Assembly: GCF_055900595.2 (NCBI RefSeq)
Contig: NZ_CM148325.1
Strand: one strand, 5' to 3'
Length of the DNA stretch: 64,000 nt
A program made the translations under genes and the position numbers. The notes under the pieces were generated by a model. It saw only the letters and a program-made list of their open reading frames with translations. It had not been told where the DNA came from and searched no databases. Below are positions 36,565 through 36,832 of the stretch, in pieces (position 1 is the stretch's first letter; every line of letters starts with the position of its first letter).

Positions 36565-36832
36565 GCCTGATGCGACGCTTATCGCGTCTTATCAGGCCTA
36601 CAGGTTTTACGTAGGTCGGATAAGGTGTTCACGCCGCATCCGACATTGAGTGCATAATGCCTGATGCGACGCTTACCGCGTCTTATCAGGCCTACAGGTT
36701 TCACGTAGGTCGGATAAGGCGTTAACGCCGCATCCGACATTGAGTGCATAATGCCTGATGCGACGCTTACCGCGTCTTATCAGGCCTACAGATTTCACGT
36801 AGGTCGGATAAGGCGTTCACGCCGCATCCGAC
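36565..36832. repeat. REP/BIME array: three tandem units of about 95 bp
   Basis: Repeated GCCTGATGCGACGCTTA(T/C)CGCGTCTTATCAGGCCTAC...GTAGGTCGGATAAGGCGTT(C/A)ACGCCGCATCCGACA units between yfcL and mnmC. Confidence 0.9.

Follow-up and report, generated by a model that had tools for sequence, protein, structure and literature searches.

A BIME-2 array of three tandem units, variable in copy number among strains, between the convergent genes yfcL and mnmC

The window analyzed here, a stretch of 64,000 nucleotides from contig NZ_CM148325.1 (RefSeq assembly GCF_055900595.2), contains a short tandem array between yfcL on the + strand and mnmC on the - strand, the latter serving in the mnm5s2U34 modification of tRNA. 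The two genes are convergent, and the 309-bp gap between them is filled by the array, which is wholly extragenic in that it is confined between the two stop codons. An initial annotation made from the sequence alone had placed the array between these two genes, and the same placement follows from RefSeq for a genome that is 100% identical in the flanks. The stop codon of yfcL occupies 36539-36541, with the first REP beginning 22 nt further on, and that of mnmC occupies 36851-36853, with the third Y REP ending 17 nt short of it. Both distances are thus greater than 15 nt and fall beyond the range over which REP-dependent translational effects have been reported. When the yfcL-mnmC intergenic region was scanned for promoters and terminators, neither a terminator-like nor a promoter-like site was found, and the three terminator-like matches returned by the scan were all within mnmC. 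The features considered in this study are as follows.

36263-36541, + strand: yfcL coding sequence (ORF list, and RefSeq annotation from a genome matching at 100% in the flanks)
36563-36833, no strand assigned: entire BIME-2 array, with a 94-bp unit repeated 2.9 times (Tandem Repeats Finder and in-register copies)
36564-36601, - strand: Z2-type REP no. 1 (92% over 38 nt to the Z2 consensus; hairpin of -12.8 kcal/mol)
36591-36601, 36685-36695 and 36779-36789, + strand: exact target of IS621 (IS110 family), ATCAGGCCTAC (3 occurrences vs 0.02 expected)
36602-36610, no strand assigned: 9-nt head-to-head linker AGGTTTTAC, flanked by CTAC and GTAG (direct sequence reading)
36611-36645, + strand: Y-type REP no. 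1, GTAGGTCGGATAAGGTGTTCACGCCGCATCCGACA (94% to the Y consensus; hairpin of -7.6 kcal/mol)
36614-36692, + strand: Rfam naRNA4 (RF02564) match no. 1, comprising Y, an l-like linker and Z2 (78.4 bits vs a gathering score of 59.5)
36646-36657 and again 36740-36751, no strand assigned: tail-to-tail linker TTGAGTGCATAA, 12 nt (Rfam alignment)
36658-36695, - strand: Z2-type REP no. 2 (Z2 consensus match and hairpin fold)
36696-36704, no strand assigned: head-to-head linker of unit 2, AGGTTTCAC (direct sequence reading)
36705-36739, + strand: Y-type REP no. 2 (Y consensus match and hairpin fold)
36708-36786, + strand: Rfam naRNA4 (RF02564) match no. 2 (81.9 bits vs a gathering score of 59.5)
36752-36789, - strand: Z2-type REP no. 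3 (Z2 consensus match and hairpin fold)
36790-36798, no strand assigned: head-to-head linker of unit 3, AGATTTCAC (direct sequence reading)
36799-36833, + strand: Y-type REP no. 3 (97% to the Y consensus; hairpin of -10.9 kcal/mol)
36851-38857, - strand: mnmC coding sequence (RefSeq annotation of L001 transferred at 100% flank identity, and ORF list)
40243-40278, + strand: single REP (consensus match, 17-mer search and hairpin fold; counterpart present in K-12)
49610-49771, no strand assigned: dedD-cvpA BIME-2, 1.7 units (consensus match, K-12 comparison and Rfam)

The array is the single strong tandem array that Tandem Repeats Finder reported in the window (36563-36833, period 94, 2.9 copies, 96% matches, no indels, score 507), and a repeat search likewise gave three in-register copies of 94 nt at a spacing of 94/94. 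The three near-identical units of about 95 bp originally assigned to 36565-36832 were hence correct in coordinates and size to within 1-2 nt. Between units 1 and 2 there are four differences in 94 positions, and two were found between units 2 and 3 across the part common to both; these few substitutions fall mainly in loops and linkers. On the + strand, each unit is composed of an inverted Z2 REP of 38 nt (TGCCTGATGCGACGCTTAYCGCGTCTTATCAGGCCTAC), which corresponds to the published Z2 REP in reverse complement, a linker of 9 nt (AGGTTTYAC or AGATTTCAC), a Y REP of 35 nt (GTAGGTCGGATAAGGCGTTCACGCCGCATCCGACA) and a 12-nt linker. Z2 and Y therefore alternate along the array with the strand pattern of -,+,-,+,-,+, and the units are indeed palindromic as had been noted, there being six imperfect palindromes, two per unit and in opposite orientation. 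The 12-nt linker TTGAGTGCATAA aligns in the Rfam alignment with the "l" linker of naRNA4/REP325; the naming of Y, Z2 and l is taken from Qian et al. 2015.

Alignment to the REP consensus, the check that had been proposed for the repeat family, supports the REP/BIME identity of the array. With consensus sequences taken from Table 1 of Nunvar et al. 2010 (PMC2817692) and from Durrant et al. 2024 (PMC11208160), the Y REPs matched the Y consensus at 94-97% over 32 nt and the Z2 REPs matched the Z2 consensus at 92% over 38 nt in blastn-short, and the match to the shorter third type of REP was limited to its ends. A REP is defined by a GTAG tetranucleotide 5' of the foot of a palindrome (PMC3333891), and this box is intact in all six REPs of the array; their lengths (35 and 38 nt) are within the REP size of 30-40 nt, and the two-base stem mismatch is present. 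As single-stranded DNA, all six adopt one common fold (-7.6 to -12.8 kcal/mol, z of -3.4 to -6.1), namely an unpaired GTAG, a stem of 7 bp, a 2x2 AA/GC mismatch, a stem of 4-5 bp and a loop of 4-5 nt. The first Z2 REP has its GTAG on the - strand, so that on the + strand it appears inverted, with CTAC at its end, and carries the loop variant TTATCGCG. The hairpin of the first Y REP is made weaker by a T in its upper stem, and the loop of the second Y REP reads GTTAAC in the window vs GTTCAC in the closest genome. When the 17-mer at the GTAG end of REPs, GTAGGYCKGATAAGRCG, was counted by an IUPAC search allowing up to two mismatches, 10 matches were found in the window vs 0.03 expected from shuffled controls; in total, the window has 11 REPs across three loci, one of which is an internally deleted remnant. 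With a 1-kb query around the array, the median number of matching places in an E. coli genome is 10.

According to Ton-Hoang et al. (PMC3333891), BIME-1 consists of Y and Z1 in a single copy with a long L linker, often with an IHF site, and BIME-2 consists of Y and Z2 in tandem copies with short linkers, while the atypical BIMEs are chimeric, combining both kinds. The yfcL-mnmC array is a BIME-2 with three tandem 94-bp units of inverted Z2 and Y: Y and Z2 alternate in tandem, they are conserved within the locus, and their number varies between strains. BIME-2 is further described by a short S linker that joins a REP to its inverted partner and by flanking s, l or r motifs; the linkers here are short (9 and 12 nt). 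The array shares with BIME-1 (RIP/RIB) the pair of inverted REPs, one of which is a Y, at the 3' ends of transcription units, but differs from it in the tandem arrangement, in Z2 in place of Z1, and in linkers of 9 and 12 nt in place of the long L linker; furthermore, the IHF core WATCAANNNNTTR had no match at 0 or 1 mismatch in 36542-36850. On these grounds the array is BIME-2 and not BIME-1, and the IHF binding ascribed to it in the initial annotation, which is a trait of BIME-1, does not apply. Gyrase binding and the stabilization of mRNA, which the initial annotation had named as well, are characteristic of the family and, for this copy, putative. Palindromic repeats at regular spacing could also suggest a small CRISPR array or its remnant, but we regard this as practically dismissed: the sequences between the palindromes are two linkers repeated unit after unit with no unique spacers, the palindromes are of two types in alternating orientation, and they match the REP consensus, which every E. 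coli genome contains many times over. Also, no cas gene is annotated in RefSeq across the 7-kb stretch from aroC to fabB. The initial annotation had drawn the same conclusion, and since the linkers recur in each unit, we concur with it.

The initial annotation had further listed REP clusters at 40244-40278 and 49612-49770. Both sites are real, but the former is a single REP and not a cluster. This REP (40243-40278) starts 6 nt past the stop codon of fabB, has Y-like arms (GTCGGAT/ATCCGAC) and a Z2-like center, and is followed at about 40311-40338 by an intrinsic-terminator-like hairpin with a T-run. The latter site (49610-49771) is a BIME-2 between dedD and cvpA, in the order of a deleted Z2 (49610-49623, with a 15-nt internal deletion), Y (49646-49680), Z2 (49686-49720, full but with CTAC not intact) and Y (49737-49771), with linkers of 17 and 5 nt; Rfam naRNA4 was matched therein at 49649-49719 with 81.9 bits. 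K-12 has one unit at this site, fewer than the window.

We then compared the number of units at yfcL-mnmC across strains, a check that had also been suggested at the outset. The window is 92-96% identical to K-12 over the entire colinear length and 99.95-100% identical to E. coli Z0117EC0005 from position 14002 onward. Sequence like that of the window around the locus was found in about 17 of 5,426 complete "E. coli" genomes, the next best being 94.1% identical. One of these, EC42405, is listed as a complete genome of cryptic clade I by Okuno et al. 2023, and the lineage of the window is probably cryptic clade I. The alleles at the locus have about 0.5, 1, 2, 3 and 4 units, as follows.

55-bp gap: Y remnant only (strain 98200)
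120-121-bp gap: one unit (K-12 and O157:H7, as well as 2EC1 and 2020CK-00188, both clade-I-like)
215-bp gap: two units (AST85, MFDS1022581 and R32_14_1F)
309-bp gap: three units (the window and Z0117EC0005)
403-bp gap: four units (EC42405)

Nearly all sampled E. coli have a single unit at yfcL-mnmC, and the array is thus a copy-number variant of a locus that has one unit in K-12 and O157. A 55-mer spanning the junction between units was found in 14 of the 5,426 complete E. coli genomes at 23 places: one junction in six genomes, two in seven and three in one, which correspond to two, three and four units, respectively. Since the 23 places are the sum expected from yfcL-mnmC alone, the linker apparently occurs nowhere else in those genomes. 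The six of these 14 genomes that were fetched have flanks nearer to the window than the K-12 flanks are. AST85, in particular, has flanks 99.9-100% identical to those of the window, and its two units are exactly units 1 and 3 of the window, indicating that one whole unit was gained or lost faster than the flanks diverged. Whole units are therefore gained and lost at this array, as seen from strains whose flanks are near-identical and which differ by exactly one unit in register. Internal variants are also reshuffled between the alleles, for example in EC42405 and R32_14_1F, and this is the pattern that unequal exchange or gene conversion between units would yield. The frequency of the half-unit allele can be given only approximately, with 573 records at least 99% identical to the half-unit query; 650 genomes fell below 80% coverage of the 1-kb query. 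In the RefSeq record of MG1655, REP features are not listed at yfcL-mnmC.

Short tandem repeats are prone to mis-assembly, and the three copies could in principle reflect a repeat wrongly expanded by the assembler. We consider this very improbable; indeed, three units are indicated by the junction count in seven independent complete genomes, and the one three-unit genome that was fetched has the array of the window save one base. The genomes with two or four units, furthermore, carry distinct internal variants, so that the units are individually recognizable.

Among known systems, the unit of K-12 and O157:H7 is orthologous; it is alike in position and orientation and, in K-12, has the Z2 loop variant of window unit 1 (TTATCGCG) and the Y loop of window unit 3. 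It differs from the array of the window in having one unit in a gap of 120 bp in place of three units in 309 bp, in the absence of the tail-to-tail linker and in its head-to-head linker, ACGTCACAC, and its flanks are only 92.6-96.4% identical to those of the window. The closest characterized relative is REP325, which we compared directly in MG1655, where it has a period of 100 and 5.8 copies in the order of Y, an 11-nt linker, Z2 and then a 17-nt head-to-head linker. Both arrays consist of near-identical tandem units with the order of Y, a tail-to-tail linker of the "l" type (11-12 nt), inverted Z2 and a head-to-head linker, and both are sense to the upstream gene; the units of the window score 78-82 bits against the naRNA4 model. 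REP325, however, has 5.8 units of 100 bp whereas the window has three of 94 bp, and its head-to-head linker is 17 nt compared with 9 nt in the window (AGGTTTCAC). The Y arms are GCCGGAT/ATCCGGC in REP325 and GTCGGAT/ATCCGAC in the window, the Z2 loop is longer by 1 nt in the window, and REP325 lies within a co-directional operon, unlike the array between convergent genes described here. REPIN-RAYT systems such as those of Pseudomonas fluorescens also comprise inverted REP doublets of about 100 bp, which associate with a single-copy, domesticated IS200-like transposase, but REPINs are mostly dispersed doublets and the yfcL-mnmC element is a tandem array.

Outside the mainstream of E. coli, a scan of species representatives with the back-translated C-terminus of YfcL plus the stop codon as a query matched only E. 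coli E69 and Escherichia sp. E1V33, a GTDB species representative. E1V33 was found to have three units at yfcL-mnmC, with the locus, the unit order and the number of units as in the window, but the units are 90-93 bp long, the head-to-head linker is of the K-12 type, and the GTAG boxes are damaged in two of the three Y REPs. The tail-to-tail linker of E1V33, TTGGGAGCACC, closely resembles the left flank of the mainstream E. coli locus, TCTGGAGCACC, and the E1V33 array thereby resembles a tandem duplication of a unit together with about 11 nt of its left flank. In E. coli, the E1V33-type junction was found as a junction in no genome, and 3,876 match only via the left flank and Z2. The linker of the window, ATTGAGTGCATAAT, is identical to that of E1V33 at 10 of 14 positions and to the left flank at only 5-7 of 12-13 positions, i.e., about half, both figures being from hand alignments of short strings and hence weak. 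That the window array arose when the one-unit allele of today was simply duplicated in tandem was also considered and is not claimed, as this does not reproduce the window linker. Judging from these sequences, two origins may be considered: an old array that diverged and, in most E. coli, was reduced to a single unit, or expansions that arose independently.

With regard to the mechanism of change, the 94-bp direct repeats would recombine unequally or slip during replication and so alter the number of units. Alternatively, RayT may be involved, a transposase whose in vitro activities include cleavage at C^T sites of inverted REPs and of linkers as well as the joining of BIMEs (PMC3333891), and the GTAG box and the stem mismatch are needed for binding and cleavage by the REP-associated transposase (Ton-Hoang et al., PMC3333891). 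The features of the RayT substrate required in vitro (GTAG, stem mismatch, inverted REP and C^T sites) are present on both strands of the array. The rayT gene is absent from the 64-kb window but was found in 3,574 of the 5,426 complete E. coli genomes, including the three-unit strain E400634, where it is full length and intact with 93.4% identity. Because RayT action and slippage predict the same in-register products, the sequences fit either mechanism.

As to what the array does, its RNA would fold into stable structures whichever gene is read through: the predicted folding energy is -154.7 kcal/mol for the + strand (z = -10.1 vs shuffled controls) and -156.1 kcal/mol for the - strand (z = -8.4), and the centroid structures consistently show the Z2 hairpins. 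Given that the gap has neither an intrinsic terminator nor a promoter-like site, the array is the only structured element met by either of the converging transcripts. Transcripts entering from yfcL or mnmC would gain up to six stable hairpins, and the array would act in both directions as a barrier to 3'-to-5' exonucleases and as a partial, Rho-assisted terminator, a role to which the lack of an intrinsic terminator in the gap also points. A BIME-2 array that varies by whole units and, by analogy with characterized REPs, probably serves as a two-way hairpin barrier and partial terminator is, in our assessment, a very likely description of the locus. Indeed, REP325 in K-12 has been demonstrated to be a partly Rho-dependent terminator and a stabilizer of the upstream mRNA (Harris et al. 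2026, preprint), and REPs between convergent genes are associated with higher expression of both genes. The same preprint reported that REPs do not uniformly lengthen the half-lives of mRNAs and that their effects depend on context. The Y units, furthermore, would be candidate gyrase sites at a place where convergent transcription accumulates positive supercoils; gyrase cleavage is enriched in BIME-2, mainly in Y REPs and independently of transcription (Sutormin et al. 2018, PMC6379681), and a candidate gyrase site at the three Y REPs of the array is thus plausible. The two extra units may themselves be functionally neutral, because nearly all E. coli carry one unit and some have only the Y remnant.

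The array could alternatively be viewed as a set of small-RNA genes, in which read-through from yfcL would be processed to naRNA4-like RNAs of about 79 nt that bind HU and help to condense the nucleoid, a role that had been put forward for REP325. The two Rfam naRNA4 matches on the + strand are above the gathering score and sense to yfcL as in REP325 (the scores on the opposite strand, 51.5 and 45.2, are under the threshold of 59.5), and HU binding and nucleoid effects of naRNA4 were reported by Qian et al. 2015. The Rfam family was built, however, on REP325, a K-12 array of BIME-2 type with yjdM and yjdN on its two sides, and in effect models the Y-l-Z2 unit of BIME-2; a match therefore shows membership in the repeat family and not RNA function, and a third match lies in the other BIME-2 of the window (49649-49719). 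Also, the promoter scan showed no promoter-like site near the array, and Harris et al. (2026, preprint), whose authors include Adhya, the senior author of Qian et al. 2015, found that neither REP325 nor naRNA4 compacted the nucleoid measurably, and saw neither a stable ternary complex nor REP-REP contacts that depend on HU. We consequently deem the small-RNA explanation unlikely and rank a nucleoid-organizing role of a naRNA4-like RNA low. It is a more serious, if still somewhat doubtful, possibility that the array is a selfish or neutral repeat with no local role, amplified in one lineage in a RayT-dependent, REPIN-like manner, with the extra copies drifting. The multi-unit alleles are rare and restricted to a lineage (14 of 5,426 genomes, the six fetched having window-nearer flanks), near-identical strains differ in the number of units, and RayT, whose gene is present in a three-unit strain, cleaves and recombines BIMEs in vitro (PMC3333891). 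The number of BIMEs is known to vary by locus and strain (PMC3333891), and the dedD-cvpA BIME-2 of the window is likewise longer than that of K-12. Nonetheless, the GTAG boxes and hairpins are intact in all six REPs, which fits purifying selection or recent homogenization, and the independent lineage of Escherichia sp. E1V33 has three units at the same place, which hints at long retention or recurrent gain. Neutral amplification and the barrier-and-terminator role overlap as to origin and differ only on whether a local function exists.

A further explanation, which we find improbable, is that a tandem array formed in ancestral Escherichia when the unit was duplicated along with some 11 nt of the left flank, that it then collapsed to a single unit in E. 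coli sensu stricto, and that it has been kept in the clade-I-like lineage as a fast-changing tuning "dial" of one to four units. This is suggested because the linker of the window is nearer to the E1V33 linker (10/14) than to its own left flank. If it were true, the length of the array would tune the bidirectional termination and the stability of the yfcL and mnmC transcripts.

The yfcL-mnmC array is an ordinary BIME-2 of the well-described REP/BIME family; its sole particular feature is the rare, lineage-restricted expansion in copy number. BIME-2 arrays with strain-variable copy numbers are textbook biology of E. coli, and the discovery value is little. The locus nevertheless has some practical uses. 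The natural series of one, two, three and four units offers a test bed for the dosage effect of REPs on termination and stability at convergent genes, for which the two strains with near-identical flanks that are one unit apart would be a useful pair, and the number of units could provide an inexpensive marker of the VNTR type for the rare clade-I-like lineage. Also, matches to Rfam "naRNA4" in Escherichia mark Y-l-Z2 units of BIME-2 and are by themselves insufficient for the annotation of a functional small RNA.

The locus has also received an insertion sequence. In E. coli strain A7, IS621 is inserted in the Z2 REP of yfcL-mnmC at ATCAGGCCT^AC, and the natural target of IS621 is an 11-bp sequence with a CT core, ATCAGGCCTAC (PMC11208160). 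This target occurs exactly three times in the window array, once in each copy of Z2, and, together with the insertion in A7, bears out the view expressed in the initial annotation that such arrays are hotspots for IS insertion.

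At the yfcL-mnmC locus of other genomes, we noticed several different states of the BIME-2 array. In E. coli strain A7 (L008 3343-4741; window equivalent about 36599), IS621, an IS110-family element with a bridge-RNA recombinase, is located within the Z2 REP of this very BIME, and its insertion point in the REP is ATCAGGCCT^AC. The IS621 in strain A7 is a natural case of REP targeting at the yfcL-mnmC locus itself. Also, the yfcL-mnmC gap of Escherichia sp. E1V33 (L015), which belongs to an independent lineage, contains three units; the linker that joins them nearly duplicates the left-flank sequence, and the GTAG box is damaged in two of the three Y REPs (GTCGG and GAGG). 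The E1V33 array looks like an older tandem duplication in decay. In E. coli strain 98200 (L007 1843-1897), the gap is just 55 bp long and holds only a Y remnant devoid of GTAG. Such a 55-bp allele would seem to be present in roughly a tenth of the complete E. coli genomes, this count being approximate: the half-unit query hit 573 records with at least 99% identity, and the coverage of the 1-kb query was below 80% in 650 genomes.

The gene for the REP-associated transposase, rayT, is not in the window; in the collection of complete E. coli genomes, megablast detected it in just 3,574 of 5,426 (66%). Identities of the detected rayT fell into three bands: namely, at least 99%, 95-99%, and 90-95%.

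Two other REP sites in the window are described here. The BIME-2 between dedD and cvpA (49610-49771) has about 1.7 units versus one in K-12. A 15-nt stretch that includes the 3' hairpin arm is missing from the first Z2, and the other, full-length Z2 has no intact CTAC. The REP at the 3' side of fabB (40243-40278) is a hybrid composed of Y-type arms and a Z2-type centre, and starts 6 nt beyond the fabB stop codon. This spacing falls within the limit of 15 nt that a published account gives for a REP to influence how the gene upstream of it is translated. An intrinsic terminator, bidirectional in appearance, follows at about 40311-40338.

In terms of lineage, identity between the window and E. 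coli K-12 is just 92-96% across all colinear segments. Of 5,426 complete "E. coli" genomes, about 17 have window-like sequence around yfcL-mnmC, and EC42405, which is among these 17, is a published strain of cryptic clade I. The window probably derives from a clade-I Escherichia.

The window also carries an integrase-bounded island adjoining a tRNA gene, and this island encodes a complete Shango anti-phage system.

Features of the island and the adjoining tRNA gene
321-5401, plus strand, island segment
5883-6899, island segment
7543-9903, island segment
about 10017-11249, island segment
12637-13854, minus strand, island segment
14006-14077, minus strand, tRNA gene beside the island, annotated as tRNA-Arg in Z0117EC0005, the closest genome
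SngA of Shango, TerB, E = 2.5e-65
SngB of Shango, BrxC/D-type ATPase, E = 1.3e-187
SngC of Shango, DEAD helicase, E = 8e-278

An IS3-family transposase is also encoded in the island; HSDR_N was the sole domain matched in a 786-aa ORF of the island, and Pfam and PADLOC searches with a 338-aa ORF of the island returned no match. Z0117EC0005 has no island and carries csc sucrose genes at the same place. Furthermore, a yfc-like chaperone-usher fimbrial operon (24718-30377) is no more than 76% identical to its K-12 counterpart; about 252 bases of its usher gene (about 26785-27038) are absent from Z0117EC0005, in which the usher gene is a pseudogene.
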